Notes: a model not told the origin generated them from the letters alone. A DNA stretch of 34,865 bases from a virus (IMGVR_UViG_3300034375_011295); one strand, 5' to 3'; counted from the stretch's first letter, positions 1 through 34,865 are shown. Made by a program: numbers and translations.

Positions 1-127
1 CAGATGAATTTATAAAAGAAAGTAAAAATACTCATAAAAACTTAAAAAATTATATTGCCAGATTGAAAATAGAAGAAGTTATTTAATTAAAAAAAATATT
101 GTAATCATTTTTAAAAAGAGAGGAAAA
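1..127. repeat. Terminal overlap identical to 34739-34865 (circular closure or terminal redundancy). Bases 1-86 duplicate the 3' end of CDS 34495-34824.
   Basis: Read directly: the first 127 nt (cagatgaattta...aaaaagagaggaaaa) recur base-for-base as the last 127 nt of the window. Confidence 0.95.
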
Positions 128-7914: not shown

Positions 7915-8132
7915 AATATTTCCTCTGTAATTATTTCAAATGTAATCGGCTCACCTAATACTACTTCTACACCCTCATCATAAATAATGTAATAGAAGTT
8001 ATCTATTTGACTAAAGCTATAATTAACCCAATAAATAGAAGTTCCATTCGGCACTGGCAAACCTTTATAATCGGCACATTGTTGCCTTGCATTAATTGCC
8101 TCTTGTTCAGTTTGATATGTATATCCCAACAT
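7911..8132 (-). CDS. Hypothetical protein (73 aa)
   Basis: ORF translationally coupled to both neighbours by overlapping start and stop codons. Confidence 0.65.
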   Translation of the reverse strand: MLGYTYQTEQEAINARQQCADYKGLPVPNGTSIYWVNYSFSQIDNFYYIIYDEGVEVVLGEPITFEIITEEIL

Positions 8133-9640: not shown

Positions 9641-10698
9641 GACACTACACTTCCAGCTATATTAATATTACCTGTATCATCTTTAAATATTTCCAATACT
9701 AAACGTTCAGATGTAGTAACTGGAATTGCACCTCCAAAGTTATCCATTGAAGTTAATCCGTTTGTTACTGTTCTTGTTGCACCACTTGGAATAAATACTA
9801 ATAAATGTCTAATTCCTGTTTGTAAATCTGTTGGATCTACTGCTGTTAAATTAAAATCAGCATCGCCTGCAACTTCTACATAATAATTAACAGATAAATC
9901 AATACTATTAGCTAAAGAAGTTGAAGCTGTTGCAGTCGTCCACGTAGCACCACCACTGCTTTCATTTTGCCAACTAATTGTTGTTCCGTTGCTCTTTAAT
10001 ACTTGTCCATTTGTTCCAACTGCTAAACGTGTTGTACCACCTGCAGAACGATAAATAATATCTCCCTCCGTAGTCATTGGATCTGCAAACCCACTTGATG
10101 CATTTTCCCAATTAACTGTAGTTGCAGTTGCTGTTAAAACTTGTCCATCAGTTCCACGTGCTAATCTTACCCAATCAGTTCCATTAAAATATAATACATC
10201 ACCCTCTGAAACTCCAGCAATATTATTTAAAGCAGTTATTACATTTGCATTATCTGTTACATCAGCTCCATCTTCTACATTTAAAATAGTCCTTGCTTGA
10301 CTTGCTGAAACTTGTTGAACTGCACCAGACCCACCTGCGTGCCTTCCTAAAAAATGGTTTGTAGCAATATCTTCGATTTTACCAAGTGTTACATTACTAT
10401 TTAATATTTTAGCAGTTGTTACTGAAGTATCAGCTAATTTTCCAGTAGTTACATTCAAATCAACAAGTTTTGCAGTAGTTACAGAATTATCAGCCAAGCC
10501 CAAAGTAACGAAATTTCCACCATCAACATAGTCGAAAGTGGAATCTACTCTCAAAGCTCCAGTCGAGCCAGTTGCACCAAGATAATCAGCAGTTGCAAGG
10601 ACATCAACTTTAACTTTTCCATCTGAAACACCTCCACCACCACCTGAATTTGTCAATCCATTTTGGGTAAAGACATTAATTATACTACAACCATTCAT
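9637..10698 (-). CDS. Fibre / spike protein with 11-residue VTTxKLxD repeats (353 aa)
   Basis: Four tandem 11-aa repeats: NSVTTAKLVDL, NVTTGKLADTS, VTTAKILNSN, VTLGKIED (nt ~10369-10494). A duplicated block GT(D/N)GQVL..(T)T(V/I)(N/S)W(E/Q)N(A/E)SSG. Gly run GGGGGV near the N-terminus. Confidence 0.6.
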   Translation of the reverse strand: MNGCSIINVFTQNGLTNSGGGGGVSDGKVKVDVLATADYLGATGSTGALRVDSTFDYVDGGNFVTLGLADNSVTTAKLVDLNVTTGKLADTSVTTAKILNSNVTLGKIEDIATNHFLGRHAGGSGAVQQVSASQARTILNVEDGADVTDNANVITALNNIAGVSEGDVLYFNGTDWVRLARGTDGQVLTATATTVNWENASSGFADPMTTEGDIIYRSAGGTTRLAVGTNGQVLKSNGTTISWQNESSGGATWTTATASTSLANSIDLSVNYYVEVAGDADFNLTAVDPTDLQTGIRHLLVFIPSGATRTVTNGLTSMDNFGGAIPVTTSERLVLEIFKDDTGNINIAGSVVS

Positions 10699-11278
10699 AA
10701 CCGACTAAACCTCTTATTTTTAATATTCTTGAAAGTGGATGATTAATATTCCTCTTTCTTATAAAAATTCCATTGCCCTCTCTTTGCGATCCACTCAATC
10801 CATTGTTTGTGTTTCCAGCATAAGTCATCACATAACCACCACCTAAAACTTCTTTCACTCTTTCAATATGACCTGACCAGCTTTTTGCAGATTTCCAAAC
10901 AATTAAATCGTGTTTTTTAACTTCGTATGGAACTTTCTTATTCAATTTTTTAGCATAATTAAACATTGCTTGACTTGATCCAGACTTAACCATTGGATTT
11001 TTTACTTTTGTACAAGCAGTTTTATTGATTTCTTGAGTAGCCATCTCATAAGCCCAATATTGATAGTAATAACAATATGGATAGCCCTTTAAACCTCCTC
11101 CAGTTTTAATAATATTTTCGATAATGACACCATCGTTATTGCCAGTGGCTTCGATAGTGCCGATTACCGAAAGACAATAACGTTCAGAAGCAGAGAGGAG
11201 TTGCTCCGAACTTGTCATTACCATAAATTTCTCTTGAGAGAAAGAAAATAAAGTCAATATGTAAATAAGTAAAATCAT
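10685..11278 (-). CDS. Secreted NlpC/P60-CHAP-like peptidoglycan peptidase (197 aa)
   Basis: Signal-like N-terminus MILLIYILTLFSFS. Cys in GYPYCYYYQYW, His in SWSGHIERV, then TYAGNTNNG. Confidence 0.55.
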   Translation of the reverse strand: MILLIYILTLFSFSQEKFMVMTSSEQLLSASERYCLSVIGTIEATGNNDGVIIENIIKTGGGLKGYPYCYYYQYWAYEMATQEINKTACTKVKNPMVKSGSSQAMFNYAKKLNKKVPYEVKKHDLIVWKSAKSWSGHIERVKEVLGGGYVMTYAGNTNNGLSGSQREGNGIFIRKRNINHPLSRILKIRGLVGYEWL

Positions 11279-11599: not shown

Positions 11600-12124
11600 T
11601 TATACCCCAGTATTCCACTTTTGTTTTTTTATTGTTACTTTGTCAATTTCAGATCGTGAGAGAAAGTCTTTTTTTATTTCCTCTGCATATTTTTTTGTTG
11701 GTGTTAAATGATAATACCATACTTTTCCTTTACTATATGCTTTGACTAAATATTCCCATTTGCCATCTCCATATTTTTTATATTCTCCACCACTCAATCC
11801 AGATTGAGATTTGCTTAAAATACTCCATCCAGTTCGTGCCATTTCTGGAATTGATTTTTTCGCATAGTCTTTCTTCTTATCAGCTGGAAGATTGTCATAA
11901 ACTTGTAAAATCATATTTGCAGTTTGCACATCTACGATTTTTCCACTTATTCTTTTATATTGATGCTCTTTTACAATTTCTCTTAATTTCTTTATTTTAG
12001 CTGGATCTTTAGTGCTATCACTCAATCCAGTAGTTTTTTTTACTTTTGATTGAGCTTTTTTGCTGGTGGCAAGATAAACTGCTCCACCGATAGCACCAAG
12101 TCCTAATAATGTTTTTGAGTTCAT
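11600..12124 (-). CDS. Leader-bearing protein 3 (174 aa): shared TM leader plus an unknown domain
   Basis: N-terminus MNSKTLLGLGAIGGAVYLATSKKAQSKVKKTTGLS. A second GLS lies at SQSGLSGG between two halves. Confidence 0.8.
   Translation of the reverse strand: MNSKTLLGLGAIGGAVYLATSKKAQSKVKKTTGLSDSTKDPAKIKKLREIVKEHQYKRISGKIVDVQTANMILQVYDNLPADKKKDYAKKSIPEMARTGWSILSKSQSGLSGGEYKKYGDGKWEYLVKAYSKGKVWYYHLTPTKKYAEEIKKDFLSRSEIDKVTIKKQKWNTGV
12020..12124 (-). repeat. Leader cassette copy 3 (codons 1-35)
   Basis: See 1772-1876. The peptide is conserved, mainly with synonymous substitutions. Confidence 0.85.
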
Positions 12125-12410: not shown

Positions 12411-12718
12411 TTTAAAAATCCTTGTTTATTCAAATAATTTTCAATGTAAGTAAGTCCTATTGATCTTAAAGTTTTATTTACCTTGCTAAAGTCTAATTTT
12501 GAAATTAAATTAGCAAGTGGCTGGAACTTTGCATTAATATTAAAATCCATATATACTGGAGTCGTAGTCCTAATTGGAACATAATTAACTGCAATATTTT
12601 TTAAATCTTTCACTTTTGCCAGAACATCATCTTTTGTTCCTGCGAATTGTAATCTTTTTCCAAGATTAATCAATTCTTTCGGTGTGTCTTTTGCTATTTT
12701 AACCATTTGGAACTCCAT
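12407..12718 (-). CDS. Hypothetical protein (103 aa; may start at the internal Met5)
   Basis: ORF overlaps both neighbours by a few nt, consistent with translational coupling. Confidence 0.65.
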   Translation of the reverse strand: MEFQMVKIAKDTPKELINLGKRLQFAGTKDDVLAKVKDLKNIAVNYVPIRTTTPVYMDFNINAKFQPLANLISKLDFSKVNKTLRSIGLTYIENYLNKQGFLK

Positions 12719-13505
12719 CTAAATCTGAATCTGGAATTGTTTGATTTGGAGCTTGTTGTGCTTGCACCATTTGAGGAGCAGGGGATTGACCAGCATTTTT
12801 GAAACTCGCCCAAATTGACGGAAGTTGTGGCAGTACTTGAGCCACCAAACTAAACATTGCTTGTTGTTGTTGTGGAATTACCTCATCAGACAAGCCCTTA
12901 TTTTCTTTTTCAAGTTCTTTCACTCTTTGTGATAAAGAATTGATCTTTTCATTTAGATTTTCTTTTTCCCAATTCCATCTTTTTTCAGATTCTTCTCTGG
13001 AAACTCTATTTAAAATATTGTCTGAAAGTCCAGATTCACTTTCTTTTTTTAACCTTGCTATTTCATCATTAAGTCTTCTTATTTCATCATTTGCTGAATG
13101 TAATTGATTTTCTAATACTTCTATTACTTTATTATTTTGAGCTTCCATTTCTCTTTTCATTGCACGATCTGAATAAAAATTTTGTGCTGGATTTGGAGCA
13201 AAAAAATCATAATTTGGATTGTCTGCCAAACTATCAACACTATCTTCATTTCTTGCTGGTACAGTCATTTCAGTTACATAAACATCCACACCGTCTTCGA
13301 TTTTGCACAAATGAAGTAAAGTTCCTTGTTTAAAATTGTGATCTCCATTCATTACCCAATCTTCAAAAGTACCATCACATTGCGAAATTAATATTTCAGA
13401 TGGAAGTGAAGTTGGACGACCTTTCCAGACTATTGCATCATTCTGGCTTTCTTTTGGATCAACTTTTCCAATTTTGTAATTTTTATTTTTTTCAAATTTT
13501 GTCAT
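12699..13505 (-). CDS. Coiled-coil, scaffold-like protein (268 aa)
   Basis: Central heptad-rich region (EIRRLNDEIARLKKE ... INSLSQRVKELEKENK). Gln/Pro-rich tail. Two GLSD sites. Strong TTTAAAGAGAGGAA leader. Lies next to the capsid candidates. Confidence 0.45.
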   Translation of the reverse strand: MTKFEKNKNYKIGKVDPKESQNDAIVWKGRPTSLPSEILISQCDGTFEDWVMNGDHNFKQGTLLHLCKIEDGVDVYVTEMTVPARNEDSVDSLADNPNYDFFAPNPAQNFYSDRAMKREMEAQNNKVIEVLENQLHSANDEIRRLNDEIARLKKESESGLSDNILNRVSREESEKRWNWEKENLNEKINSLSQRVKELEKENKGLSDEVIPQQQQAMFSLVAQVLPQLPSIWASFKNAGQSPAPQMVQAQQAPNQTIPDSDLDGVPNG

Positions 13506-13529: not shown

Positions 13530-14171
13530 TTAAACCCAAAATTCAACTATTGCTTGAACTGGATAATTTTGATATGTACTTTCTTCTGAAACGTATTGAG
13601 CAAATGCAGTTGAAATTTCAATATTGCTTACTCTTTCTACTTCTTTTCCTACATTTATGCAAGTATTCATTGGAATACCAAGTGATTTAAAACCTTTATT
13701 GCTTTCAGATCCAGCAGGACCATTGATAAACCCTTGATTGATTAATTCTCCATCAATTGTAATCGCAGGACGGAAAAAATTTGGCTGGAAAACCACTGGC
13801 ATAGCACCATTCAAGTAATTTGATTGTGGATATGACCTTGTTACAGTCGTTCCATCAATTAATTGAGATCCTATAATTACATCAGCAGTTGCAGATAAAC
13901 CAGCAATCGTTGGATCAAAAGCAAAAAAGCTAACTTGATGCACAAATAAGCAGTTTTTAGATTTCAATGGAGTTAGATCTGAAAAAGGAGTTAAACTTCT
14001 TACTTCTGGGCTTGTTGTGGCATCTGCCATAGCTTGTAAGTAAGCAATTAAGCCATTATCAGCATCTGTAATTGTTACTCCAGATTTTGATGTTAAATAA
14101 GTGGCATAAAAAGTATTTGGGTACTTTTCACGCATTCCACTTAAATAAATTGGCGTATTATTATCGAACAT
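13530..14171 (-). CDS. Beta-rich structural protein, capsid candidate (213 aa)
   Basis: Position in the structural core. No helices or TM evident, and the composition is typical of beta-sandwich proteins. The function is inferred from context. Confidence 0.4.
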   Translation of the reverse strand: MFDNNTPIYLSGMREKYPNTFYATYLTSKSGVTITDADNGLIAYLQAMADATTSPEVRSLTPFSDLTPLKSKNCLFVHQVSFFAFDPTIAGLSATADVIIGSQLIDGTTVTRSYPQSNYLNGAMPVVFQPNFFRPAITIDGELINQGFINGPAGSESNKGFKSLGIPMNTCINVGKEVERVSNIEISTAFAQYVSEESTYQNYPVQAIVEFWV

Positions 14172-15276
14172 TTGGAGCTACTCCCATTTGATAACCATCA
14201 AATTTGAAGTTAAATGTCAATGGATAAACATTCAAGGAAGTTGATAAAATACCATCAGCAGTTGCAGATCCTTGAATTGCTCCAGTAATTGTTTCATTGT
14301 CTTGAAAAGTTCCAGTTACTGACTTTAAAATAAAATATCCAGTTGCACCAGTACCTACTTTTTCAACTATTACACCAGTTGCCGATGAAGTTCCACCAGT
14401 AATTGTGTCGCCAACTACAAAATCGGCAGTCATAGCGTCAAAAGCTAATCTTTGAGCAGAATAATTTGTGTTTGAAGTTCCCAGTACATCAATTGTATAA
14501 TCAGTATTGGCATCTAAATAAAGTCTTCTAAATCTTTTGGATCTTGTAATTTTATTGAATACTCGCAAAGGCATATTATTAAACATAATTTGATTTTGAT
14601 TGTATTTAAAATTAATTACAAATTCATCTTGTATATCTTTTTCTGTGATTACTTTACCATTTGCATCAATAACATCAACTCTCATTGTGTCAATTATTTG
14701 ACCTTGCAAAGTAGTTCTAATTGTGTTTTGATCAGCAGTTGAATTGCCAGACTTTGCAGAAATAGAATATTGTCTTATTTGACCATATCTAAAATCTAAT
14801 TTTTGTCTTTGTGCGTTCCAACCTGCGTTTGCTGGAAATCCTAATTGATAGCCAACAAAGTTAAAAGAAACTGAATAAGGCATATCTACATTTGTTGAAG
14901 CTGGAATATTCAATCCAGTAAAGGTAATTTCATAAGTGGAATTTCCCTCAACTAAAAAGCCCTGAAATTGCTCTGACAAATACATTTCATTGAAACTTTC
15001 TAAAGTGAAATTATAATCTCCGAAAAGATTATTTCCATTTAATACTTTAATATTCATTTTGATTAAATTTCTATCAATTTCAGATTCGTCGATTGCTTGA
15101 CCATTTGCATTTGTTAGGGCAACATAAGGCATTATGCACCATAGGTCCATATTGTCTGTTTTGAAAGTTAAGGAAGTAGTAGTATTTCCAGATGAGATTG
15201 TACCAGTCTTATTGTAGTGGTACATTTGCATATTATTAAGGTTTTTAATAATATCATTTATATTTTCTAATTTCAT
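14161..15276 (-). CDS. Structural protein built from a tandem duplication of a ~150-aa beta domain (371 aa); capsid or vertex candidate
   Basis: The halves align by eye: TNANGQAIDESEIDRN with IDANGKVITEKDIQDE, FQGFLVEGNSTYEITFTGLN with FRRLYLDANTDYTIDVLGTS, and MPYSVSFNFVGYQLG with VYPLTFNFKFDGYQMG. The second half carries a ~60-aa insert, GDTITGGTSSATGVIVEKVGTGATGYFILKSVTGTF. Confidence 0.45.
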   Translation of the reverse strand: MKLENINDIIKNLNNMQMYHYNKTGTISSGNTTTSLTFKTDNMDLWCIMPYVALTNANGQAIDESEIDRNLIKMNIKVLNGNNLFGDYNFTLESFNEMYLSEQFQGFLVEGNSTYEITFTGLNIPASTNVDMPYSVSFNFVGYQLGFPANAGWNAQRQKLDFRYGQIRQYSISAKSGNSTADQNTIRTTLQGQIIDTMRVDVIDANGKVITEKDIQDEFVINFKYNQNQIMFNNMPLRVFNKITRSKRFRRLYLDANTDYTIDVLGTSNTNYSAQRLAFDAMTADFVVGDTITGGTSSATGVIVEKVGTGATGYFILKSVTGTFQDNETITGAIQGSATADGILSTSLNVYPLTFNFKFDGYQMGVAPNVR

Positions 15277-15315
15277 TTTAAATATCCTATTTCAGATTTT
15301 TTTACAATTTTTTAT

Positions 15316-15696
15316 TTATTTAATTTTTACAAAGCCCTTATGCCATCTTACCGATTTTTTACCAGACATTGTTTTTTGTCCTGCATCTAACTTTACATAG
15401 GGGATGCCATTTCTTTCTACAATTGTTCCAGTATATTGAGTAACATTAAAAAATGGGCTTACAAAGTCATACATTACCTTATCTGAAATTTTTAATTTTG
15501 CTTTTTTTAGTTCCGTCTTTGCTTTTTTTACAAAATTAGCTCGTTCAACTTCATACATTTTTCGAATTAATGGATATGCCGATTTGTATTCATCAGATGC
15601 ATAAAATTCATTTAAAGATTTAAAGTTTTTTGCTTTTAACTCAACCCAATCTAATGCTTCGGAATAATCTGCAAAATTTAATTTCAATTTGCTCAT
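15316..15696 (-). CDS. Hypothetical protein (126 aa)
   Basis: ORF downstream of the hairpin at 15759-15790. No motif recognised. Confidence 0.7.
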   Translation of the reverse strand: MSKLKLNFADYSEALDWVELKAKNFKSLNEFYASDEYKSAYPLIRKMYEVERANFVKKAKTELKKAKLKISDKVMYDFVSPFFNVTQYTGTIVERNGIPYVKLDAGQKTMSGKKSVRWHKGFVKIK

Positions 15697-15739
15697 AATA
15701 TTTTTTTAATATAATAGTGTTACTATTAGTTTGTTAGTT

Positions 15740-15790
15740 GCAAACAAAAGGGGTAGGAGAGAGGAATCAGAGTTGCAGTCTGACCCTCTC
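15740..15790 (-). terminator. Stem-loop / partial terminator after the 216-aa gene
   Basis: Plus-strand gagagg(aa)tcaga at 15759-15771, loop gttgcag, then tctga(c)cctctc at 15779-15790. On the minus strand it is followed by cttttgttt. One of the few GC-rich hairpins in the arm. Confidence 0.55.
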
Positions 15791-15804
15791 GAATACCCTA
15801 TTTT

Positions 15805-16455
15805 TTATCTTCTTTCTCTAATTTGAAGTGTTTTCAAATCAAAGATAACTCCATAACCTTTTGAAGACGATAGACCAGAATTTGGCCAAGTCATAAAGTT
15901 AGTAGTTCCAACTGCTTCTGTTGTAAATGTACCATTAACATTGAATTGGAATTGGAATGTAGTTCCAGCACCTAAAACAATTGGCTCTGGTAATTTATAA
16001 CCTTGATCAGCGTTTCTTCTTTCCACTTTAGTCCAAGCTGCTGCTTCGTCTGTTGCAGATGCTTCTACCACAGAATAAAAAGGTACTAAATTTGAAAGTG
16101 GCTCATTTAAGATTTCAGATCCTTCAACTTGTAATCTTACATAAGCATTTTCCAAGAAAGAAGCATAAGTTTGTCTTGCAGATGCTTCATCAGTTGAATC
16201 AGTAGTCGAGAATAACACATAAGGTTTAATGTTAATTCCTTGAATACTAAACGCTTGTGAGTTTGACGGAAATCCGGGTGTTTTATAAGCATCATTTTTA
16301 CTTGCAGAAGTAAATAATTGATTGCTTGGCTCAAAAGAAGCTCCACCATCCACAAAAATTGTATCTCTTACCGTCTTCGGTACTACGACATAGTTGTCGT
16401 CCATTTTTGGCGCTCCAACTGCTTGAAGTTGAAGTCTTTGTTGATCTATTGACAT
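15805..16455 (-). CDS. Major structural (capsid) protein candidate (216 aa)
   Basis: Beta-rich protein. The gene is followed by the strongest hairpin in the arm, a common signature of highly expressed capsid genes. Contains NSGLSSS. Function is inferred. Confidence 0.4.
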   Translation of the reverse strand: MSIDQQRLQLQAVGAPKMDDNYVVVPKTVRDTIFVDGGASFEPSNQLFTSASKNDAYKTPGFPSNSQAFSIQGINIKPYVLFSTTDSTDEASARQTYASFLENAYVRLQVEGSEILNEPLSNLVPFYSVVEASATDEAAAWTKVERRNADQGYKLPEPIVLGAGTTFQFQFNVNGTFTTEAVGTTNFMTWPNSGLSSSKGYGVIFDLKTLQIRERR

Positions 16456-16483: not shown

Positions 16484-17068
16484 TTAATTAAATCTTGAAT
16501 AAACATCTGTATCCATCCATTCCATTCCATCAGACATAGTTGGAGTTGTTTTAAATTGACTATTTTGTCTAAATTTTGAAAGATTACTTGCATAATCACT
16601 CATTCCAGCCGAATTATCACTTTGTACAGTTGTTGGGATCATAATACCTTGCTCGTTTGGAACTTGTACCACTTCTTGACCATCAGACATAGTCGGAGTA
16701 GCACTATAAATTCCATCTGCCAAAGAAGATGATCCAGCGATTGCAGGAAGAACTAATGGCTGATTCAATGAACTTGCCAAAGTTTTATTCCAGTAGTGTA
16801 AAATTTGCTCTCCACCAGCAAATGCTAATGTAGTTGTCCCAGCAGTTTTCCAACCTTTCCCATAGCAAACTGCCGAAACTAAAATTGCAGATGAAAGGGC
16901 AGGAATAGGACCAGATAAATCTACATTTTGACCAGCTTTGCTTAATCCATATTGAGTAATTCCAGCCAAGTTTTTACTTACCAGAACTGCCCCAATAGAT
17001 TGAGCAACTGTTTTTAATGTTGGACCTTTGAATATTTCAGATAGTCCGTTTGTCAATGCTTTTAACAT
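16484..17068 (-). CDS. Hydrophobic Gly/Ala/Ser-rich membrane protein with repeated TPTMSDG motifs (194 aa)
   Basis: Hydrophobic segments (SIGAVLVS, PALSSAILVSAVCYG, TTTLAFAGG). TPTMSDG occurs twice and GMSDY once. Two GLS sites. Confidence 0.7.
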   Translation of the reverse strand: MLKALTNGLSEIFKGPTLKTVAQSIGAVLVSKNLAGITQYGLSKAGQNVDLSGPIPALSSAILVSAVCYGKGWKTAGTTTLAFAGGEQILHYWNKTLASSLNQPLVLPAIAGSSSLADGIYSATPTMSDGQEVVQVPNEQGIMIPTTVQSDNSAGMSDYASNLSKFRQNSQFKTTPTMSDGMEWMDTDVYSRFN

Positions 17069-17085
17069 AAAAATCTCCTATTTCC

Positions 17086-17589
17086 TTATGAATATTGAGT
17101 ATAAACTGGAACTCCCATATTGTCATATCCAGTTATTGAGTAAAGTCTTCCGTTATTCTTGTTTTTATAAAGAACAGTTCCATTCGGTGTTCTCGAGTCT
17201 TGGATCATTTCACTTTGAGCAAATGAATCAGATAAACCACCAGATTTGTCTAATTGCATTTTCCCTAAATAACACAATCCACCTACAATTGCAGTTGTCA
17301 AAGGTCCAGTTTTGAAAATCATCCAAGAAGCTCCAGCACCAATTCCACCAATTAATAATGGATCAGCGTCATTGAATTTTCTCTTAACTTTCGTTACAAT
17401 TCCCTCTTTTTCCTTATCTACTTCTGGAACAACCTCTTTGATCTGTTCCTCTACTTTTTCAATTCCCTCGTCAATTTCTTTGTTTTTTTTGTTGATTAAA
17501 TCCCTGCCTTTGTCTAACCAGACATCAAGTATTCCACCATCAGAAAGCGAAATTGATTTTGGAATTGCACTTGTACCACTTACATACAT
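17086..17589 (-). CDS. Membrane protein, hypothetical (167 aa)
   Basis: Central helices LLIGGIGAGASWMIF and LTTAIVGGLCYLG, followed by SGGLSDS. Confidence 0.7.
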   Translation of the reverse strand: MYVSGTSAIPKSISLSDGGILDVWLDKGRDLINKKNKEIDEGIEKVEEQIKEVVPEVDKEKEGIVTKVKRKFNDADPLLIGGIGAGASWMIFKTGPLTTAIVGGLCYLGKMQLDKSGGLSDSFAQSEMIQDSRTPNGTVLYKNKNNGRLYSITGYDNMGVPVYTQYS

Positions 17590-17610: not shown

Positions 17611-19764
17611 TTAATACTCACAACAATTTCTTTCATACTCACATTCACAACAATAATTGCAATGATTTTCATAGCCCACATTATCATTGTTTTTTAAAAA
17701 ATTAATTTCCTCTCTTAATTCTTTTTCTCTTTGTTTTGCATCAGTCAAAGCCGATTTTAATTCATTTTCTCTTTCAGGACTAAAATTTTTAATCAGATCA
17801 TTTTCATATTTTAGATTTTCAGATCTTAATCTTTCAAGTTCCTCTGTCATAGATGAATTTTTATTATTTTGACTTCGCAAATCTTTAATTTCATTCTGCA
17901 AATTTTTATTTTTTTCTTGCAACTGACTTAATTCTCTAATAAAATTATCACAAGGTTCTGGCTCTTTTTGTGGCTCTACTGGAACACAATCAACAATAAA
18001 TCTCCAACCCTCGCCTAAATCAGCAATAAATTTATTTTCTGTTGTTTTTTTAGCTGGATAAGTTTTTCCTTTCCAGAAATAAACCAAGCCACCATTTTCA
18101 GATTTTTGAATACAACAAGGCAAATCATCAGTATTAACTTTCTCAATCGGTGGGGAAGTGTGAACACCCTCTGGACAAAGTATTGGTCTTGTTAGCCCAA
18201 CATTTTTAAAAATTTTACCATTTGCAAATTGGATATAATCTCCATCCACAATATAAGATCCACCAAAATCTTTTGCCATTGCGTTGTAATCAACATAATC
18301 TTCTGGTAAATAAATTGCTTGAGGGCAATTTTTATATTTTGCGTTGCAAAAAGCCAATTCGCCACAATCAAATTTTTTGCCAGTAACATCAATTTTATTT
18401 TTTGTCAAAGAACTTTTATTAACTTTTCTCAAATAATCAGTACCATTCAGCAATATAATTTCATAAACATTCCCATCTGGATCTGTGTAATAATCTTTAC
18501 CATCAACATAACTTTGCTTTAATTTTTGCCAAAGCCCAGACTTCATTGCATCAAATCTCCTTATCAAGTCATTTCCTTGAGAGCTACTGCTCCCAGAATT
18601 AGAAGACCCACCAGTACCAGAGGGATTTGAGGAGTTGCCTCCTGCACTACCTCCTTGAGTGCCACCACCAGTTGAGCTATTGCCACCAGTATTTGAATTG
18701 TTAGAACTTCCACCACCAGTATTTACATTATTTGTGATTTTTTCAATTTTGATTGGATAAATAACTATTTCAGTATTGATTTGGTCAATAGCATAAGTCT
18801 TATTATCCAGAGAATAATCAAACACTTGCATAATTGTAGCATTAGTACTGTTTTTTAACGGAGTAAAAAATCTGTCTTTTAACTCAATCCCATTTTCAGT
18901 TGTAATCTTATATTCTCCATCCCAAAGAGCATTTTTAAAAAAAAGAGTTTTTACATTTTTAATACCATTGTAAGATTGCATCTCTTTGATAAAATCTCCC
19001 AAGTTTGAAGTAGGAGTGCCTACTCGCATATAACTCATAACTTGTGGAGTAAATTTATAAATCAGTCCACCAAGTAAATTAGTCCATCTACCAGAATATG
19101 CCGATACATCATTGATATTTTTAACACCTGTTGGAATATTTAATCCTAATTTTGTACCGACACCAACACCGATTAAAGCAGTTGCAGGATCAACAATTAA
19201 TCCCATTTTCTTTGGCTCTAAAGTTGGAACTAAATTATAAATTGCATTATTTGAATAGCTTTTTATCCAATTTGAAATATTACCATTTGAAAAATCAACT
19301 GAATTTAATGTTGTTGATTTTGTTGTAAATCTTCCCCAAGTATCAAATATTTCAGCTCCATTACTTGCTTTTCTAAATCTAACATTAACATTTTTTAACT
19401 TGATTTTCCTTTCGGCAAAGAAAACACCACCAGTAAGAACATTTGAAAAGGCAAAATAAATTATGTCGTAAATAAAAGTATCTCTTGAACTGCCTTTTAC
19501 TACATTTATTGATGGAACTACTTTTATTGTCATAGTCCATTTGTCAAGAATTTTAGTTGTTTTGCTATCGTATTTATTTAAAAATTGAGTATTGATCCAT
19601 TTAGAGTTGTTTTTTCTGTCAAGAAAATAGCCACCAGTTGAAAATGGATAATTATTAGCATTATAGTAAGTGGATAAGCCCAAAGCATCCCACATACCAT
19701 TAATAAACTGATCAGATTGACCAGTAATTAATAAATTCCAATTTTCGTTTGGAGTGTTACCCAT
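17611..19764 (-). CDS. Large structural protein (717 aa): N-terminal globular half, G/S/N low-complexity linker, Cys-rich C-terminal half, coiled coil and a CC-rich tail
   Basis: Linker aa 345-398 (nt ~18571-18732). Coiled coil ~aa 608-693. The last 17 aa, HCNYCCECEYERNCCEY (nt 17614-17664), contain 6 Cys. Confidence 0.75.
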   Translation of the reverse strand: MGNTPNENWNLLITGQSDQFINGMWDALGLSTYYNANNYPFSTGGYFLDRKNNSKWINTQFLNKYDSKTTKILDKWTMTIKVVPSINVVKGSSRDTFIYDIIYFAFSNVLTGGVFFAERKIKLKNVNVRFRKASNGAEIFDTWGRFTTKSTTLNSVDFSNGNISNWIKSYSNNAIYNLVPTLEPKKMGLIVDPATALIGVGVGTKLGLNIPTGVKNINDVSAYSGRWTNLLGGLIYKFTPQVMSYMRVGTPTSNLGDFIKEMQSYNGIKNVKTLFFKNALWDGEYKITTENGIELKDRFFTPLKNSTNATIMQVFDYSLDNKTYAIDQINTEIVIYPIKIEKITNNVNTGGGSSNNSNTGGNSSTGGGTQGGSAGGNSSNPSGTGGSSNSGSSSSQGNDLIRRFDAMKSGLWQKLKQSYVDGKDYYTDPDGNVYEIILLNGTDYLRKVNKSSLTKNKIDVTGKKFDCGELAFCNAKYKNCPQAIYLPEDYVDYNAMAKDFGGSYIVDGDYIQFANGKIFKNVGLTRPILCPEGVHTSPPIEKVNTDDLPCCIQKSENGGLVYFWKGKTYPAKKTTENKFIADLGEGWRFIVDCVPVEPQKEPEPCDNFIRELSQLQEKNKNLQNEIKDLRSQNNKNSSMTEELERLRSENLKYENDLIKNFSPERENELKSALTDAKQREKELREEINFLKNNDNVGYENHCNYCCECEYERNCCEY

Positions 19765-20057
19765 TATTTATTCCATTCTTTTTGATAAGCAAAATATCCT
19801 AAAGTCGCTATGCCAAGCCCAATTAAATAAGGTGCATACTCTTTCAAATACGAACCTAATTCATATTTAGCTCCAGTTCCACAAACTCGAATAGTCGATT
19901 TTCCAACTGCCGAAAACATTGCATCTTCCAACGCATTAGTTTTACCCATTACCAGTTGAGAAGCCACTTTTTTTAAGTCAAGATTGCGTACTTCTTTGAA
20001 AACTTCCTCTTTTACAATTTGTTGAGTTAGTTTCGGCAAGTCTGAATATGATTCCAT
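19764..20057 (-). CDS. Tail-anchored small membrane protein (97 aa)
   Basis: C-terminal helix YAPYLIGLGIATLGYFAY followed by QKEWNK. Confidence 0.7.
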   Translation of the reverse strand: MESYSDLPKLTQQIVKEEVFKEVRNLDLKKVASQLVMGKTNALEDAMFSAVGKSTIRVCGTGAKYELGSYLKEYAPYLIGLGIATLGYFAYQKEWNK

Positions 20058-20060
20058 CTT

Positions 20061-20249
20061 TTACCCTAATTTAGCCAACTCTTTAGCTTGTAATCTACTC
20101 AAGATTGCTTCGCAAGTTTCTTTTGATCTCTTGCGAAATATTCTTTTCTTACCTTTAAAAATTGACCAGAACTCATTATAAGTTGGATCAGCTTTCAAAG
20201 TATAAACAGAATTTATTTCTGCTTTTTTTGTAGTTTTTGCTTTTGCCAT
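20061..20249 (-). CDS. Small basic protein, hypothetical (62 aa)
   Basis: Lys/Arg-rich ORF in the operon. Confidence 0.6.
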   Translation of the reverse strand: MAKAKTTKKAEINSVYTLKADPTYNEFWSIFKGKKRIFRKRSKETCEAILSRLQAKELAKLG

Positions 20250-20263
20250 TTTTCTACCTAATT

Positions 20264-21802
20264 TTAAAAAAGTTTATTTTTCTTTGCATACCATATACCT
20301 CCACCAACTGCTACTGCAATCCCCAGAGGCATCATTTTTCTTAAATTTGTGTCATAATCCCAATTATCTTGATAACCAATTACATCAGCACCAACTGACT
20401 TCTTAATTTCAATTGCAAATTTTTCTCTTTTGCCAATTGGAATTGTGTCTGGAAGAACAAAAGGAATTTTGTTACTGGCATATTTAGATGCTTGTTTTAT
20501 CAAAGCACTTAAAGTCATTTCATCAAAATTATCTTCTGGACCAACATAGCCAAATGATGAAGCTATTAATCCCACTAAATTATTTTGTGTCAATCTATTG
20601 TCAGATATTTCACGTTTTATTATTTCTGGAATTAGTTTATCTACTCCAATCACACCTTGCAAAATTGTTCCAGCACTTCCAGACTGAAATAAATTATTTA
20701 TTGCAGGAACTTGATAAACCGAAATGCTTTCTGAAAGTTCTGAAAGTAAATTTTCTCCTCCAGATCGCCCAGTCATTTTTCTTTTTAAGATTTCATTTGT
20801 ATAAGAACTAACCACACCAGAAAAAGTCTTATTTGCATTTGCTAAAGATCCATTGATTTTTCTTAAATCAACTACTTGATCAAATTTTCCAGAAGCAATA
20901 TTATTTAAGAACTTTATAGTTTCTGCTTTATCTACTCCAGTAATTGATGAAAATTGAGTTACTAAATTTCCAGCAAAATTTTGTTGGATCGACTCATAAC
21001 CAGTTTTTGCTTGATCAATATATTTTCCAAAAATCCAACCATCTTCCAACTTTCCAGTAATATCGTTTTTAATTTTACCCCACTTTGCAGTAGCTCCTTT
21101 CGTCCATTCAGGCAACAATATTTCAGAAGTCATTGCCAAAGATTTAAAAATATTATTGTTTTGAGCAGTTTTGTCGCCTTTTGACCAAATTTTTATTAAC
21201 GTTCCAGCTTGTTCGATAAACTTTGGATCAATATTCAAAGGTCCTGCAAAGGAACTCGCAATTGCTAAAGCATAGCCAAGCACATCTGTTAATGAATTTG
21301 CTTCCGAATAACTCCAATAAATAATTATTGGATTGTCGTGCTTTTCTCTATTATTTTCAATTTTTTCAAGAACTTCAAAGAAATTTTTATTATAATCTGG
21401 CTTTCTAAATTTCCAATTTCCAAAATATCCACCACTCACAACACCTTTATTAATCAATTTTGCCCTGTCTGTCCTTGTATTGTTGTTATTTCCCCAAATA
21501 TTTCTAATTGTTTGACCAACTTGAATAATAGGGCAGTTTGACCATAATTCTTTTGAGCTATTAAAACCTAACAATTCTCCTTTAAGCAAAGTTTTTGATT
21601 GTTTAGTATTTTCATCAGCAACTACAATTAAATTTCCAACTTTATCTTTAAACATTCCAAAACCAGTTGGGCTTTTTAAATTATCCGTTTTTTCATTATA
21701 AAAAAGAGCCGATCCATTTATCAAAGCCGAAGAATTTGCAGTCGTTATATCATAACAAACGTGCAATTCTTTTAAAGCCGACCAATGTTGAATGTTTTTC
21801 AT
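20264..21802 (-). CDS. Large tail-anchored protein, unknown function (512 aa)
   Basis: No P-loop or other recognisable motif. C-terminal helix MMPLGIAVAVGGGIWYA followed by KKNKLF. Confidence 0.75.
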   Translation of the reverse strand: MKNIQHWSALKELHVCYDITTANSSALINGSALFYNEKTDNLKSPTGFGMFKDKVGNLIVVADENTKQSKTLLKGELLGFNSSKELWSNCPIIQVGQTIRNIWGNNNNTRTDRAKLINKGVVSGGYFGNWKFRKPDYNKNFFEVLEKIENNREKHDNPIIIYWSYSEANSLTDVLGYALAIASSFAGPLNIDPKFIEQAGTLIKIWSKGDKTAQNNNIFKSLAMTSEILLPEWTKGATAKWGKIKNDITGKLEDGWIFGKYIDQAKTGYESIQQNFAGNLVTQFSSITGVDKAETIKFLNNIASGKFDQVVDLRKINGSLANANKTFSGVVSSYTNEILKRKMTGRSGGENLLSELSESISVYQVPAINNLFQSGSAGTILQGVIGVDKLIPEIIKREISDNRLTQNNLVGLIASSFGYVGPEDNFDEMTLSALIKQASKYASNKIPFVLPDTIPIGKREKFAIEIKKSVGADVIGYQDNWDYDTNLRKMMPLGIAVAVGGGIWYAKKNKLF

Positions 21803-21805
21803 TTT

Positions 21806-22639
21806 TTAATACCTTTCAGGGTACTTGTAAATTTTTTCTCCAGCAGTAATTGTTGAATATAATTGCTTATGACCTCGTCCATTTACTGCATCTGGCAAAG
21901 TGATTTTATCTTTTTCAAGAACTTCATCAACAACAACATTTTCATTTGGATTTTTTACACCTAATTGGTGCAATAATCTTTGAGTTACATCAATATTATT
22001 ACTTCCAGACTGACTATTTGAGTGTTGATTTCCAATATTTATATTAATTTCAGGCATACCTTTCCTTAATCCAGAGCATCTATTACAAGACCCTTTACAA
22101 GCACAAGGTTTATCTGACAAAGTTTTTAATTCTAATTCTGGCATTGGCGACCTATATAATTTTGTTCTATTTGCTTTTACTGTGTGATTAAAACCAGCAC
22201 TTTTCATTGTCGGATCTAAAACAATCCATCTACTTCCATCTTTTGCTTCCAAAACAATATGAGTAAATCTCAAATCTTTTGGATCTTTCCAAGAAATCAC
22301 TTTATATCTTGTCGTAATTCCATTAATTCTTAATAATGAAGAAATAAGTAAAACCATACTTTCACAATCTTCACAAGTTTTCTGCCCTGATATTAAGAGC
22401 CAAGGCGACGTAATATGCTCCATTCCTTTAGGATCATCACAAAAACTTACAGACTTCCAAACATAATCAAAGCACTTTTTAATTGTATCAGATCTTGAAC
22501 TGCCTCTCAACTCGTTAGCTTTTTTTTTTACTATTGGATTGTTTGTAGCCACTTGATCAATAGAATATATTTCTCTAATTATTTGATCAATCAATCCATC
22601 GTGATTTTTAGCAGTTATATTTCTTGATTTTGACTTCAT
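21806..22639 (-). CDS. Transglutaminase-like (papain-fold) cysteine protease superfamily protein (277 aa)
   Basis: Core KTCEDCESMVLLISSLLRINGITTRYKVISW ... FTHIVLEAKDGSRWIVLDPT matches the Cys / His / Asp order and spacing of transglutaminase-like domains. A Cys cluster (CACKGSCNRCSG) lies in the C-terminal third of the protein (aa ~179-190). Confidence 0.6.
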   Translation of the reverse strand: MKSKSRNITAKNHDGLIDQIIREIYSIDQVATNNPIVKKKANELRGSSRSDTIKKCFDYVWKSVSFCDDPKGMEHITSPWLLISGQKTCEDCESMVLLISSLLRINGITTRYKVISWKDPKDLRFTHIVLEAKDGSRWIVLDPTMKSAGFNHTVKANRTKLYRSPMPELELKTLSDKPCACKGSCNRCSGLRKGMPEININIGNQHSNSQSGSNNIDVTQRLLHQLGVKNPNENVVVDEVLEKDKITLPDAVNGRGHKQLYSTITAGEKIYKYPERY

Positions 22640-33178: not shown

Positions 33179-33520
33179 TCATTTCCAAATATTTTTATTA
33201 ATAATGTTAGATAAAATTCCACCAGCTAAATTTATTGTTTCTGTAACAATTTTTTTACCAGATTCTTTCATTTCAGGCGACATATTTTTTTTAATTTCAG
33301 TCCAATCAAGTGGCTTTTTTAGTGATTTTTCAAAAGATAACTTCTCTTTTTCGGCTAATTCTTTATATTTTTTATCTTTCTCAATTTCAATTTCTTTAAA
33401 AATTTCCTCTTGGATTTCTTTCTCAACTGGATCAGAAAATTTATCTGGATGATTAGCGACTTTTAATTCTTTTGCCAATTTTTCCACTTCTTCGGCAGTT
33501 TTGCAATTATCAAAATACAC
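33179..33520 (-). CDS. J-domain (DnaJ-like co-chaperone) protein (113 aa, GTG start)
   Basis: YFDNCKTAEEVEKLAKELKVANHPDKF fits J-domain helix II plus the invariant HPD tripeptide, followed by a helical charged region. AGGAGGAGG RBS lies 6 nt upstream of the GTG. Confidence 0.6.
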   Translation of the reverse strand: MYFDNCKTAEEVEKLAKELKVANHPDKFSDPVEKEIQEEIFKEIEIEKDKKYKELAEKEKLSFEKSLKKPLDWTEIKKNMSPEMKESGKKIVTETINLAGGILSNIINKNIWK

Positions 33521-34190
33521 TTACAACCTCCTCCTTATAAGTATCAAAAGCTAATCTGGGCTTATCTCCCAAATATCTATTTTTTTTGAATGAAGCTACC
33601 GATCGAGTACCATCATTTGCTAACCAAACAACAATATCTGGATTATGCTCCCACATTGTCGGACCTTGCATTTTCCCTTTTTTAGACTTGGTATAGTGTA
33701 AAACCACAATAAAGCTCTCTGGACGTGATTGAATGTAATCCCACATTTCTTTATGTTTATTTGTGGAAGCACCAGCTATCATTGAAACTGAATCAATTAC
33801 AACATATTTATAATTGCCTTGTTCCAAAATTTTAGTTAATTCAGAATAAAAATCAGCACCAACATCATCAATAATATCAATATACTGCAAACTAACTGGA
33901 GATAATCTCATTGTACGACATTTTTGTTGAATAGTCTTGCCACGTCGGAGTGGCTCTTCAATATTCAGATATAAACATCTATCTCCTTGCTTATTTCTGG
34001 AATTTTTGCCACAAAGTCTTGACATAAACCTCAATAAAAACGAGGATTTTCCAGCAAATGCTTCTCCAGAAACAGACATTACAAATGGATCATCATAAGG
34101 CAACATAAACAACCATTTCCTATACCTATGATCCATAGGCGTAGGAATTGATTTATCTTTTATAACTTTATTTAGTTGTTGTGTTTGCAT
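33510..34190 (-). CDS. RecA/KaiC/DnaB-C-terminal-like P-loop ATPase (Sak4/AAA_25-like) (226 aa)
   Basis: Walker A SGEAFAGKSSF. Walker B YKYVVIDSV. IVVLHYTK. A C-terminal KKNRYLG typical of RecA-superfamily members. Confidence 0.6.
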   Translation of the reverse strand: MQTQQLNKVIKDKSIPTPMDHRYRKWLFMLPYDDPFVMSVSGEAFAGKSSFLLRFMSRLCGKNSRNKQGDRCLYLNIEEPLRRGKTIQQKCRTMRLSPVSLQYIDIIDDVGADFYSELTKILEQGNYKYVVIDSVSMIAGASTNKHKEMWDYIQSRPESFIVVLHYTKSKKGKMQGPTMWEHNPDIVVWLANDGTRSVASFKKNRYLGDKPRLAFDTYKEEVVSVF

Positions 34191-34497: not shown

Positions 34498-34824
34498 CAA
34501 AACACATATTATGTAATAATCAATCCCACCACACAAAAAAGATTAGCAAGTTATTATTTCGGTGCTTTTTGTGCTGGAGTTAAAGAAGTTTTTAGAATGA
34601 GAGATGATGAGTGGTTAGTGTTTAGGACTTATGAAGAAGCAATTTTGAAAATTGAAAGATTTAATAAAGATGTAGATAAGTGGCTAAATGAAAATATAAT
34701 GATAAGGCAATTACCAGACTGGGAAGCAGTTGGAAAAGCAGATGAATTTATAAAAGAAAGTAAAAATACTCATAAAAACTTAAAAAATTATATTGCCAGA
34801 TTGAAAATAGAAGAAGTTATTTAA
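34495..34824 (+). CDS. Hypothetical protein (109 aa)
   Basis: ORF with a GAGAGG RBS. Its last 86 nt fall in the terminal overlap. Confidence 0.8.
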   Translation: MQNTYYVIINPTTQKRLASYYFGAFCAGVKEVFRMRDDEWLVFRTYEEAILKIERFNKDVDKWLNENIMIRQLPDWEAVGKADEFIKESKNTHKNLKNYIARLKIEEVI

Positions 34825-34865
34825 TTAAAAAAAATATTGTAATCATTTTTAAAAAGAGAGGAAAA
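34739..34865. repeat. Terminal overlap identical to 1-127
   Basis: See feature 1-127. Confidence 0.95.

Follow-up and report, generated by a model that had tools for sequence, protein, structure and literature searches.

The window analysed here is the whole 34,865-nt stretch of a viral genome (IMGVR_UViG_3300034375_011295). As a preliminary description made from the sequence alone had proposed, its minus strand carries a trio of open reading frames which, in the direction of reading, encode proteins of 216, 371 (14161-15276) and 213 amino acids (Table 1). None of the three proteins has a signal peptide or a transmembrane segment, and no relative of any of them was found in Pfam, PHROG, PDB sequences or GenBank phages, or in IMG/VR together with 50,697 phage records. 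The two small hydrophobic proteins encoded just upstream (194 and 167 aa) have orthologues in all relatives of the window; the 194-aa and 216-aa families are not paralogous. Downstream lies the gene that had been likened to a coiled-coil scaffold gene: the reading frame is there and its coiled-coil-type matches fall at aa ~110-215, but these matches are weak; its orthologues in relatives are 249-279 aa long. The 126-aa ORF is missing in the syntenic relatives (L001, L003-L008, L011-L017) and therefore lies outside the conserved module. The hairpin behind the 216-aa gene, formerly taken as the strongest of its arm, is present and is the most stable intergenic window, but it ranks third among all 60-nt windows of the minus-strand arm. 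One relative (L001, 9890-9945) has a hairpin of another sequence with a T-run at the equivalent position.

Table 1. Features of the window (positions counted from its first nucleotide)
Feature	Position	Strand	Basis
Terminal 127-nt repeat	1..127		Direct repeat D2, 100% identical to 34739-34865
268-aa protein with central coiled-coil-like segment, conserved neighbour	12699..13505	-	Weak coiled-coil-type Pfam matches, aa ~110-215
213-aa protein	13530..14171	-	ORF; start overlaps end of tandem gene by 11 nt
Last strand of predicted C-terminal jelly roll, aa 346-371, and stop codon	14161..14241	-	FNFKFDGYQMG aligns with N-half end SFNFVGYQLG
Inserted five-strand beta domain, aa 281-345	14242..14436	-	Predicted strands 291-348 (AF2 model)
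C-terminal jelly-roll-like domain, first part, aa 151-280, to penultimate strand	14437..14826	-	Helix, B-F, helix, G-H predicted; hhalign to N half
N-terminal jelly-roll-like domain, aa 1-150	14827..15276	-	Predicted DSSP pattern; homologous to C half
126-aa accessory ORF between terminator and tandem gene	15316..15696	-	ORF; no family matches
Intrinsic-terminator-like hairpin with U-rich tail	15745..15804	-	dG -23.6 kcal/mol, z -3.4; directly 3' of 216-aa gene
216-aa beta-rich protein, candidate vertical single jelly-roll capsid protein (small-MCP-like)	15805..16455	-	ORF; AF2 model
Pair of small conserved proteins (194 aa, 167 aa) containing hydrophobic Gly/Ala-rich stretches, candidate virion-membrane proteins	16484..17589	-	Immediately upstream of trio
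277-aa transglutaminase-like protein	21806..22639	-	Pfam Transglut_core 3.4e-6; SSIP-1 gp34 homologue
226-aa P-loop ATPase, AAA_25 type, candidate packaging ATPase	33510..34190	-	Walker A GEAFAGKS; Pfam AAA_25 4.9e-8

The 371-aa protein is an internal tandem duplication, as had been suspected. Its halves align with a Smith-Waterman score of 77 as compared with 34 ± 5.5 for shuffled sequences (z ~7.5), a score equalled by 0-1 of 500 shuffles, and the motifs pointed out earlier (ANGQ/K, F(Q/R)... and GYQ(L/M)G) are all in register. At the family level, with the insert removed, hhalign matched the N half to the C half over 109 columns at 28% identity (probability 97.6%, E 4.7e-12), and the duplication recurs in other tandem proteins with z values of 5 to 27. 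Profiles included, there is no detectable similarity between the 213- and 216-aa proteins or between either of them and either half of the 371-aa protein. The second domain is interrupted between its penultimate and last strands by the predicted insert, which is real and comprises ~65 residues (aa ~281-345, GDTITGGTSSATGVIVEK...); in the AF2 model, strand 354-366 forms the last strand of that domain. Neither the N half nor the single-domain homologues nor the tandems of 283-298 aa have the insert, which is probably surface-exposed. As the sole query it matches ~60 other proteins, including SU10-adaptor-like, tail-tube and tail-L proteins, as well as structural proteins of Rhizobium and Brucella phages.

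The relatives of the window place this duplication in a series. An exhaustive HMMER search with aa 1-280 returned 42 clusters, ~33 of which are single-domain proteins of 102-158 aa that match the N half end to end. The gene slot of the 371-aa protein, flanked in all forms by 216- and 213-family genes, is filled by a single-domain protein of 138-158 aa in L008, L012, L013 and L016, by an insert-less tandem of 283-298 aa in L011 and L017, and by a tandem with insert of 365-376 aa in the window, L001-L007 and L014. Because a single-domain version stands in the same place in related viruses, the proposed step from single to double jelly roll can probably be traced in sequence, and the duplication is even more informative about evolution than the preliminary description had expected. 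Bootstraps in the domain phylogeny are below 50%, so that the tree does not give the direction or the number of duplication events; the change likely ran from single to tandem, although a tandem ancestor may instead have lost one domain to give the single-domain forms. The 216-aa family comprises 7 clusters plus syntenic orthologues. The 213-aa protein is the best conserved of the trio, with 44 clusters that are every one named 'hypothetical', and its gene is the next one downstream of the single or tandem gene in all relatives examined. Relatives are found in Kapaibacterium, Ignavibacteria and Chlorobiota assemblies.

Structure prediction points to jelly-roll folds, with the qualification that the AF2 models, built from alignments of 6-7 sequences each, carry moderate to low confidence (pLDDT 65 for the 371-aa and 53 for the 216-aa protein, the latter with pTM 0.49) and that their Foldseek matches have TM-scores of 0.18-0.44 at E-values of 1e-3 to 5e-7. 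In the 371-aa model, the DSSP pattern in both halves (in the N domain a helix and strands B-F, then a short helix and strands G-I) would give two eight-stranded barrels in one polypeptide. Viral jelly-roll capsid proteins or the cellular GH172/DUF2961 double jelly roll make up 17 of its top 22 PDB matches, which include PRD1 P3 (1.5e-4), STIV, PR772, D13, PBCV-1, FLiP, SGIV and Faustovirus; in BFVD it matches the Wip1 MCP (5.3e-7, prob 1.0), the STIV coat protein (prob 0.99) and the GC1 MCP. Its matches also include the STIV turret protein A223, tail-fibre proteins and a baseplate-wedge protein. The inter-domain geometry of the model is not superposable on known MCPs (TM 0.18-0.26); the arrangement of barrel to barrel is therefore not established, and we do not claim side-by-side packing. 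For the 216-aa model the best PDB match is SH1 (6qt9 chains a/g/h, E 1.5e-3, prob 1.0), together with P23-77 VP16, HCIV-1, VP17 and SPV1, suggesting, at a pLDDT of 53, a likeness to single jelly-roll capsid proteins of the major and not the penton type. The earlier suggestion of jelly rolls is thus supported by the models for two of the three proteins, both of which match jelly-roll capsid proteins. Jelly-roll and beta-sandwich domains occur in fibres, lectins and enzymes as well.

The 127-nt identity of its ends indicates that the genome is complete, at ~34.7 kb, and circular or terminally redundant; its GC content is ~30%. In this complete genome no ORF has a Pfam or PHROG match to TerL, portal or HK97 capsid, and the 512-aa ORF has no match in phages by tblastn. 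A Walker A motif occurs in two ORFs only, of 226 aa (AAA_25/KaiC/AAA_24-like) and 303 aa (AAA_33/zeta-toxin-like), and in none longer than 303 aa; neither of the two proteins matches FtsK/HerA families of packaging ATPases. A highly divergent tailed phage, whose terminase, portal and HK97 capsid escape the profiles and whose trio encodes tail, baseplate or decoration beta-sandwich proteins, could account for the PHROG matches of three ORFs (9637-10698, 8132-9640 and 7339-7914) to tail-fibre or 'virion structural' families, for the occurrence of the insert domain in tail-tube, tail-L and adaptor proteins, and for the baseplate-wedge protein among the BFVD matches. We nevertheless consider it very improbable: the genome is complete and has neither profile matches to the hallmark genes nor a large Walker A protein, the sole MCP-sized ORF is almost all-beta in its model, the phage collections searched hold no relative of the trio, and a tailless phage has virion proteins to which two proteins of the window are homologous. 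Still harder to credit is a mobile element of non-viral kind (a plasmid or an integrative element, for example) whose beta-rich proteins are secreted or displayed on the cell surface and have nothing to do with capsids. Some relatives are integrated in chromosomes as proviruses or carry an integrase, the window encodes a ParB-like polyvalent protein and replication genes, and all of the trio lack annotation. Yet the genome also encodes a lysis set (CHAP endolysins, SLT, and holin- and spanin-like ORFs), its long co-oriented structural arm is kept across very divergent relatives, the fold matches concentrate on viral capsid proteins, and to the same virion-protein homologies is added the lack of export signals or membrane segments in the trio. 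Several conserved module proteins have a hydrophobic helix at their C-terminus; such helices in the 209-, 512- and 97-aa proteins, with the hydrophobic segments of the 167- and 194-aa proteins, are indirect indications of an internal membrane.

[quoted passage not shown] The 226-aa ATPase is homologous to its virion protein gp40 (BLASTP 2e-7 over ~200 aa) and the 277-aa transglutaminase-like protein to its structural/virion protein gp34 (BLASTP 2e-8); these pairs are the only significant phmmer matches between both proteomes, and their presence makes SSIP-1 the closest characterised virus. The transglutaminase-like gene heads the module in relatives too, and the ATPase gene is distant from the capsid genes in the window as in L003, where its homologue lies at the arm's far end. 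Further likenesses are a circular dsDNA genome of tens of kb and a module order of giant protein, small hydrophobic protein, ~210-aa beta proteins and 256-aa protein. By hhalign the 216-aa family pairs best with gp45/gp46 (P 1.2e-3, 141 columns) and the jelly-roll family with gp47 (P 8.4e-3); both matches are collinear, but weak and below significance. The second-best structural match of the 371-aa model is BFVD entry I1ZBI0, whose 256 aa equal the length of gp47, to which it is likened by length alone. SSIP-1 differs in that its capsid proteins have no significant sequence similarity to those of the window, in having two paralogous ~210-aa proteins (gp45/gp46) where the lineage of the window has one, in GC content as compared with the ~30% given above, and in otherwise unrelated gene content. 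It has been placed among the two-MCP viruses whose beta-barrels are single and vertical (PMC4958249, PMC5332951, PMC6356626).

Taken together, we favour, with a probability of roughly 0.65, the reading that the window is the genome of an uncultivated tailless icosahedral dsDNA phage, a distant relative of SSIP-1, in which 16455-13530 is the capsid module and the 371-aa protein is a shell protein of two homologous jelly rolls. The capsid proteins most likely belong to an undescribed tailless phage, whose virion probably has an internal membrane. On a related account, the virus is equally a tailless jelly-roll virus in which the shell is made of the 216-aa protein, possibly joined by the 213-aa one, and the 140/286/371-aa family supplies a vertex, turret, spike or decoration protein of one or two lectin-like jelly rolls. 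Variation in domain number (1, 2, 2 with insert) among otherwise syntenic viruses would be more easily tolerated in such a peripheral protein, the insert is common to neck and tail proteins of tailed phages, the terminator follows the 216-aa and not the 371-aa gene, and the turret protein A223 and a tail fibre appear among the fold matches. Moreover, gp45/gp46 of SSIP-1 look like a two-MCP pair, with gp47 as a separate structural protein. We regard this account as unlikely, if clearly worth weighing, because it is major capsid proteins and not spikes that give the best fold matches over the whole length, and because switching between one and two domains fits even barrel numbers (dimers, hexamers) and not five-fold vertices. 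In addition, fibre-like genes are encoded separately from the trio (9637-10698, 8132-9640). The 371-aa protein is also better conserved than most of its neighbours (61% identity to L001, compared with 47% for the 216-aa and 31% for the 268-aa protein), and its place among the better conserved structural proteins speaks against a receptor-binding role.

For a shell built of these proteins, the vertical single jelly-roll viruses P23-77 (VP16/VP17), SH1 and HCIV-1 (VP7/VP4) offer a model, their capsid chains being the best, though weak, matches of the 216-aa model (SH1, P23-77 VP16, HCIV-1; pLDDT 53; E 1.5e-3). As in these viruses, the candidate capsid genes are adjacent, and in L008, L012, L013 and L016 the neighbour of the 216-aa gene is of single-jelly-roll size. 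Their pseudo-hexameric capsomers are assembled from single barrels pairing as homo- or heterodimers (PMC8812541, PMC4958249), and the same capsomer logic is presumed by analogy for the lineage of the window. There is no sequence relationship, however, and the window lacks their conserved block in which the packaging ATPase gene is collinear with those of the small and the large MCP, since its ATPase is encoded elsewhere; upstream of the 216-aa gene are instead the 194- and 167-aa hydrophobic proteins. In the large MCP of these viruses a second barrel is stacked atop the first (PMC4958249), whereas in the 371-aa protein the second predicted barrel copies the first at the level of sequence, and the block in the window includes a third conserved protein of 213 aa.

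The 371-aa protein also resembles MCPs of the double jelly-roll (DJR) type, in the two consecutive eight-strand barrels with a helix between F and G in each (as modelled), in its best whole-length Foldseek matches (Wip1, PRD1 P3, STIV, D13), in a comparable size class (345-395 aa) and in a surface insertion in an outward-facing loop. Classical DJR MCPs have a proposed origin from cellular DUF2961-like proteins. Known DJR MCPs show no detectable sequence similarity even within the family and are related by structure comparison alone (PMC8812541), whereas in the 371-aa protein one half finds the other at E 4.7e-12, and the protein has single-domain orthologues. Other differences are the low TM-scores, with side-by-side barrels not established, and the lack of a recognised FtsK/HerA-type ATPase in the window, an enzyme that is missing in some DJR and single jelly-roll viruses as well (PMC8812541). 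The genome, at ~34.7 kb, is also larger than those of prokaryotic DJR viruses, which are typically <20 kbp (PMC8812541).

On the favoured reading, the 216-aa protein would act as a vertical single jelly-roll shell protein and the 371-aa protein as a second shell protein, derived from a ~145-aa single jelly-roll capsid gene that was duplicated in tandem and fused. In a later step, a promiscuous ~65-aa beta domain would have been inserted in the second barrel's final outward-facing loop, where it would give a tower or an adhesion knob on the surface. The 213-aa gene would be translationally coupled to the 371-aa gene and its product a further conserved capsid component, possibly a vertex protein; a penton or a third shell protein would be our guesses. 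Since the slot is filled in relatives by a protein of one domain, the tandem protein is expected at lattice positions of two single-domain subunits. One possibility is a covalent dimer within pseudo-hexameric capsomers to which the 216-aa protein also contributes; another is that six monomers give way to three tandems, in the manner of classical DJR trimers. Whether this lineage preserves in sequence the transition from single to fused double jelly roll, by a duplication-fusion route independent of that of classical DJR MCPs and within a new high-rank group of tailless phages, is to our minds evenly balanced. If so, double-barrel capsid proteins could indeed arise when a viral single jelly-roll capsid gene is duplicated and fused, perhaps on more than one occasion, and the window would represent a new high-rank group of ~35 kb tailless phages, allied to SSIP-1, that infect Ignavibacteria, Kapabacteria, Chlorobiota and related bacteria. 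A conceptual analogue is the T5 tail-tube protein pb6, in which a ring-forming domain has been duplicated in tandem and fused, so that three fused subunits take the place of six single ones, and a decoration domain has been added; its fold (tail tube) and the structure it builds are unrelated to those of the 371-aa protein.

[quoted passage not shown] The preliminary description had placed a candidate capsid cluster here, with a middle protein made of two homologous beta domains, and all three of its ORFs are present on the minus strand. The internal duplication of the 371-aa protein is confirmed by local alignment of its halves, which recovers the motifs reported earlier and scores 77 against 34 ± 5.5 for shuffles (z ~7.5; 0–1 of 500 shuffles equal), and by hhalign, in which a profile alignment of the window protein and five homologues (33–74% identity) pairs the N half with the C half at 97.6% probability (E = 4.7e-12, 109 columns, 28% identity) once aa 281–345 are removed. 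Since the halves align without these 65 residues, which correspond to the ~60-aa insert described in the second half, the insert lies inside the second copy, after the penultimate strand and before the last. No similarity was detected among the 213-aa protein, the 216-aa protein and the repeat unit, even profile to profile with enlarged family profiles. The idea that the two flanking proteins are divergent versions of one another or of the jelly-roll unit was abandoned on these tests, as was, after a negative test of its own, that of the 194-aa upstream gene as a paralogue of the 216-aa gene in the manner of SSIP-1 gp45 and gp46. A hairpin does lie 3′ of the 216-aa gene, and its description as the strongest on the arm holds in the sense that it is the most stable 60-nt window among intergenic ones; a relative 47–68% identical has a hairpin of other sequence with a T-run at the same position. 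Between this terminator and the tandem gene lies a 126-aa ORF that none of the examined syntenic relatives has, probably an accessory gene gained recently.

Positions of features in the window
Feature	Position	Strand	Details
Identical ends	1-127, 34739-34865		127 nt each
Long arm	23479-773	minus	
GC-rich clean hairpin	750-809	minus	AAAGCCCUCGAUUGAGGGCUUUUCU; 3′ of ORF 773-1291, end of the arm
Shared-leader DNA	1772-1876, 3285-3389, 12020-12124	minus	N termini of ORFs 1295-1876, 2478-3389, 11600-12124
880-aa ddrB-ParB protein	3394-6036		
Two CHAP-domain proteins and SLT transglycosylase	10685-11278, 1886-2476, 6559-7065		
213-aa protein	13530-14171	minus	ORF
~65-aa insert domain	14242-14436		aa 281-345 of 371-aa protein; internal G(D/E)TITG...SAT pseudo-repeat, no Pfam family
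371-aa tandem protein	14161-15276	minus	ORF
126-aa ORF	15316-15696		
Hairpin, U-rich tail	15745-15804		3′ of 216-aa gene; dG -23.6 kcal/mol, z -3.4
216-aa protein	15805-16455	minus	ORF
512-, 97- and 717-aa ORFs	17611-21802		

The jelly-roll capsid folds proposed for the cluster were pursued by Foldseek searches with AlphaFold2 models of the 371- and 216-aa proteins, and jelly-roll capsid proteins were the top matches of both. The 371-aa model, built on a six-sequence alignment, is moderate (pLDDT 65, pTM 0.55); each half runs through an N-terminal helix, five strands, a short helix and three strands, and residues 291–348 form a separate five-strand unit. Each barrel of a double jelly-roll (DJR) capsid protein typically has a helix between its strands F and G. 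The best PDB matches are PRD1 P3 (1.5e-4), the STIV major capsid protein (MCP), PR772 P3, vaccinia D13, the GH172/DUF2961 arabinofuranosidase, PBCV-1, FLiP, SGIV, phiCjT23 and Faustovirus. In BFVD the Wip1 tectivirus MCP comes first (5.3e-7, probability 1.0), and an unnamed 256-aa entry, I1ZBI0 (5e-6, probability 1.0), and the STIV coat protein (probability 0.99) are also found. TM-scores are low (~0.2), the similarity being local and running along both domains, and the way in which the modelled barrels are oriented to each other is not to be trusted. PHM is also among the matches; DUF2961, PHM and PNGase F are cellular DJR families (PMC8812541). The 216-aa model is poor (pLDDT 53, pTM 0.49); as modelled, its best matches nevertheless form a coherent set, all of them vertical single jelly-roll (SJR) capsid proteins: SH1 capsid chains (1.5e-3, probability 1.0), P23-77 VP16, HCIV-1 chains, VP17 and SPV1.

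The number of domains in the middle protein differs between relatives. Word-indexed searches with the 371-aa protein returned only six full-length clusters and ~60 proteins that share the insert only. An exhaustive search by HMMER, whose profile covered aa 1–280 and left out the insert, found 42 clusters, 33 of them proteins of 102–158 aa that match the N-half profile end to end; the others comprise four tandem-plus-insert representatives, three insert-less tandems and two large unrelated repeat proteins. Internal similarity is very clear (z 20–27) in the insert-less tandems (P0080, 286 aa; P0106, 283 aa; and P0087, represented at full length by its cluster member P0126 of 298 aa). Among the compared loci, numbered L001–L017 with SSIP-1 as L015, the slot of the 371-aa gene holds a single-domain gene in L008, L012, L013 and L016, an insert-less tandem in L011 and L017, and a tandem with insert in L001–L007 and L014, flanked in every case by members of the 216- and 213-aa families. 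The order of genes in L008 (162, 204, 217, slot gene of 140, 208, 269, 103 and 88 aa, then CHAP) mirrors that of the window (167, 194, 216, slot gene of 371, 213, 268, 103 and 88 aa, with a CHAP gene later). Each genome has only one gene of the jelly-roll family, and because the gene after the slot begins within a few bases no second domain could hide there. By position, the single and tandem forms are orthologues. The N and C halves share ~21% identity, and the halves ~20% with the single-domain proteins; in a domain tree meant to count the duplications, all relevant bootstraps fell below 50%.

The main rival to a shell role holds that this variable jelly-roll protein is peripheral, a turret, spike or decoration on a shell made by the 216-aa protein. 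The variation in domain number would suit such a part, as would the position of the terminator; however, the 371-aa protein has whole-length structure matches to major capsid proteins, its conservation is good (61% identity to L001, against 31–47% for several neighbours), and even-number logic also speaks against a peripheral place. In the capsid module that we favour, the 216-aa protein would be an SJR shell protein and the second shell protein would consist of one barrel or a fused pair, depending on the virus, with the window version bearing an extra surface domain. Since the tandem gene is the positional orthologue of the single-domain one, its product should stand where two single subunits would. 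Pseudo-hexamers of P23-77 are built of small-MCP homodimers and large-MCP monomers (PMC4958249), which makes it plausible by analogy that the tandem acts as a covalent dimer; in a second mode, a trimer of tandems would take the place of a hexamer.

The ends of the window are exact copies of each other, which makes it a complete genome of ~34.7 kb, circular or terminally redundant, with a G+C content of ~30%. None of its ORFs matched terminase, portal or HK97-fold capsid families, which in a complete genome argues strongly against a tailed phage. An early idea, a duplicated tail-tube protein like T5 pb6, was dropped after the fold search and after no tail-module genes were found. The plus-strand arm encodes a replication initiator, a DnaB helicase and a ParB-like protein, and the long minus-strand arm encodes the capsid cluster, CHAP endolysins, an SLT transglycosylase, fibre-like proteins and a ddrB-ParB polyvalent protein; Walker A motifs occur only in the 226- and 303-aa ORFs of the window, and no tRNA genes were found. 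Conserved arm proteins of 209, 512 and 97 aa end in hydrophobic helices and those of 167 and 194 aa contain hydrophobic segments, a pattern predicted from sequence that would be expected of, and is not proof of, a virion with an internal membrane.

Comparison of the window and SSIP-1 proteomes by phmmer gave two significant matches, the 226-aa ATPase with gp40 (BLASTP 2e-7 over ~200 aa; both AAA_25-type) and the 277-aa transglutaminase-like protein with gp34 (2e-8), and in SSIP-1 the annotation of gp40 and of gp34 is virion structural protein. The structural module of SSIP-1 has a similar layout, with a giant gp43, gp44, the paralogous ~210-aa gp45 and gp46, the 256-aa gp47 and gp48, and the best SSIP-1 matches of the family HMMs, at scores below significance, are gp45/gp46 for the 216-aa family and gp47 for the jelly-roll family. 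Reviews place SSIP-1 among the two-MCP viruses with vertical single beta-barrels (PMC4958249, PMC5332951, PMC6356626). The capsid of the present lineage would be a variant of the vertical jelly-roll capsids of membrane-containing tailless phages, and the lineage supplies genomic relatives to SSIP-1, hitherto an orphan within the phage collection. Within SSIP-1, gp45 and gp46 (L015 34635-36813) are clear paralogues (z ~19), and gp47 has a weak internal repeat (z ~3.8), a hint that this protein, too, might consist of two barrels in tandem. The 512-, 97- and 717-aa ORFs of the window correspond to one giant protein of 1210–1476 aa in the distant relatives L004, L012, L013, L014 and L016 and recall the 2319-aa gp43; a long tract rich in Gly, Ser and Asn, a coiled coil and a C terminus rich in Cys (CNYCCECEYERNCCEY) are found in the 717-aa ORF.

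Whether DJR proteins arose by duplication and fusion of viral SJR capsid genes or were captured ready-made from cells is open and has recently been contested (PMC8812541). Sequence similarity among DJR MCPs is undetectable (PMC8812541), and because the known families keep no sequence signal the debate rests on structure comparison alone. Here the halves can be aligned and single-domain orthologues occupy the same slot, so that the question becomes testable by phylogeny, by structures and by swaps of single and tandem forms. For Bamfordvirae, the view that DJR proteins began as fused viral SJR genes is not supported (PMC8812541); a lineage with a visible fusion would not overturn that conclusion, and would show such a route to be real and accessible to study. 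In the literature searched, we found no account of the lineage, and none of tandem jelly rolls recognisable by sequence in a capsid protein.

The lineage recurs in metagenomes: 23 contigs, from several sources, carry the exact 371-aa protein, and the flanking 213-aa family has 44 clusters. No meaningful match came from Pfam and PHROG scans of the trio, its neighbours and 31 single-domain homologues, and a PDB sequence search with profiles of all four families gave no match. By tblastn against 50,697 GenBank phage records, the 213-, 216- and 512-aa proteins had no match and the 371-aa protein matched only via its insert; a search of IMG/VR for related loci with the 216-aa family found none. Absent from those searches and invisible to Pfam and PHROGs, the lineage is missed by current virus-detection pipelines. 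A scan of genome contigs found one related locus, in a Chlorobiota MAG, and the names of 213-aa family members come from MAGs of Candidatus Kapaibacterium and Ignavibacteria. One relative with a single-domain capsid gene, L012 (GCA_942492935.1, OW818654.1 1558086-1578547), is integrated in a 4.49-Mb chromosome near dnaA, and another, L016, has a gene for a tyrosine integrase, so that the lineage must be temperate at least in part.

The inserted domain is shared with SU10-adaptor-like, tail-tube and tail-L proteins and with structural proteins of Rhizobium and Brucella phages (the "neck protein" of RHph_I3_18; ORF16 of Tb and F1), and is thus a promiscuous, mobile module of virion proteins; it also recurs in ~600-aa tailed-phage proteins (phrog_5107, labelled "amidase"). 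The SLT transglycosylase has a C-terminal hydrophobic helix, and since its gene lies directly 3′ of the 213-family gene in distant relatives, it may be a virion-associated wall-degrading enzyme. The 880-aa protein, with a ddrB-like ParB domain of the polyvalent-protein type and internal direct repeats 333–399 nt apart, is kept in L003, L013 and L014. The GC-rich hairpin at the end of the minus-strand arm is likely the terminator of the structural operon. A leader of ~35 aa, M(D/N)(A/S)KTLLG(L/I)GAIGGA(V/I)YLATSKK, opens three otherwise different proteins (193 aa; a 303-aa AAA_33/zeta-like ATPase; 174 aa), is 74–88% identical in DNA and looks like a membrane anchor, or a signal for virion targeting, that the three share; the same leader is found on a DUF7222 protein in L001.
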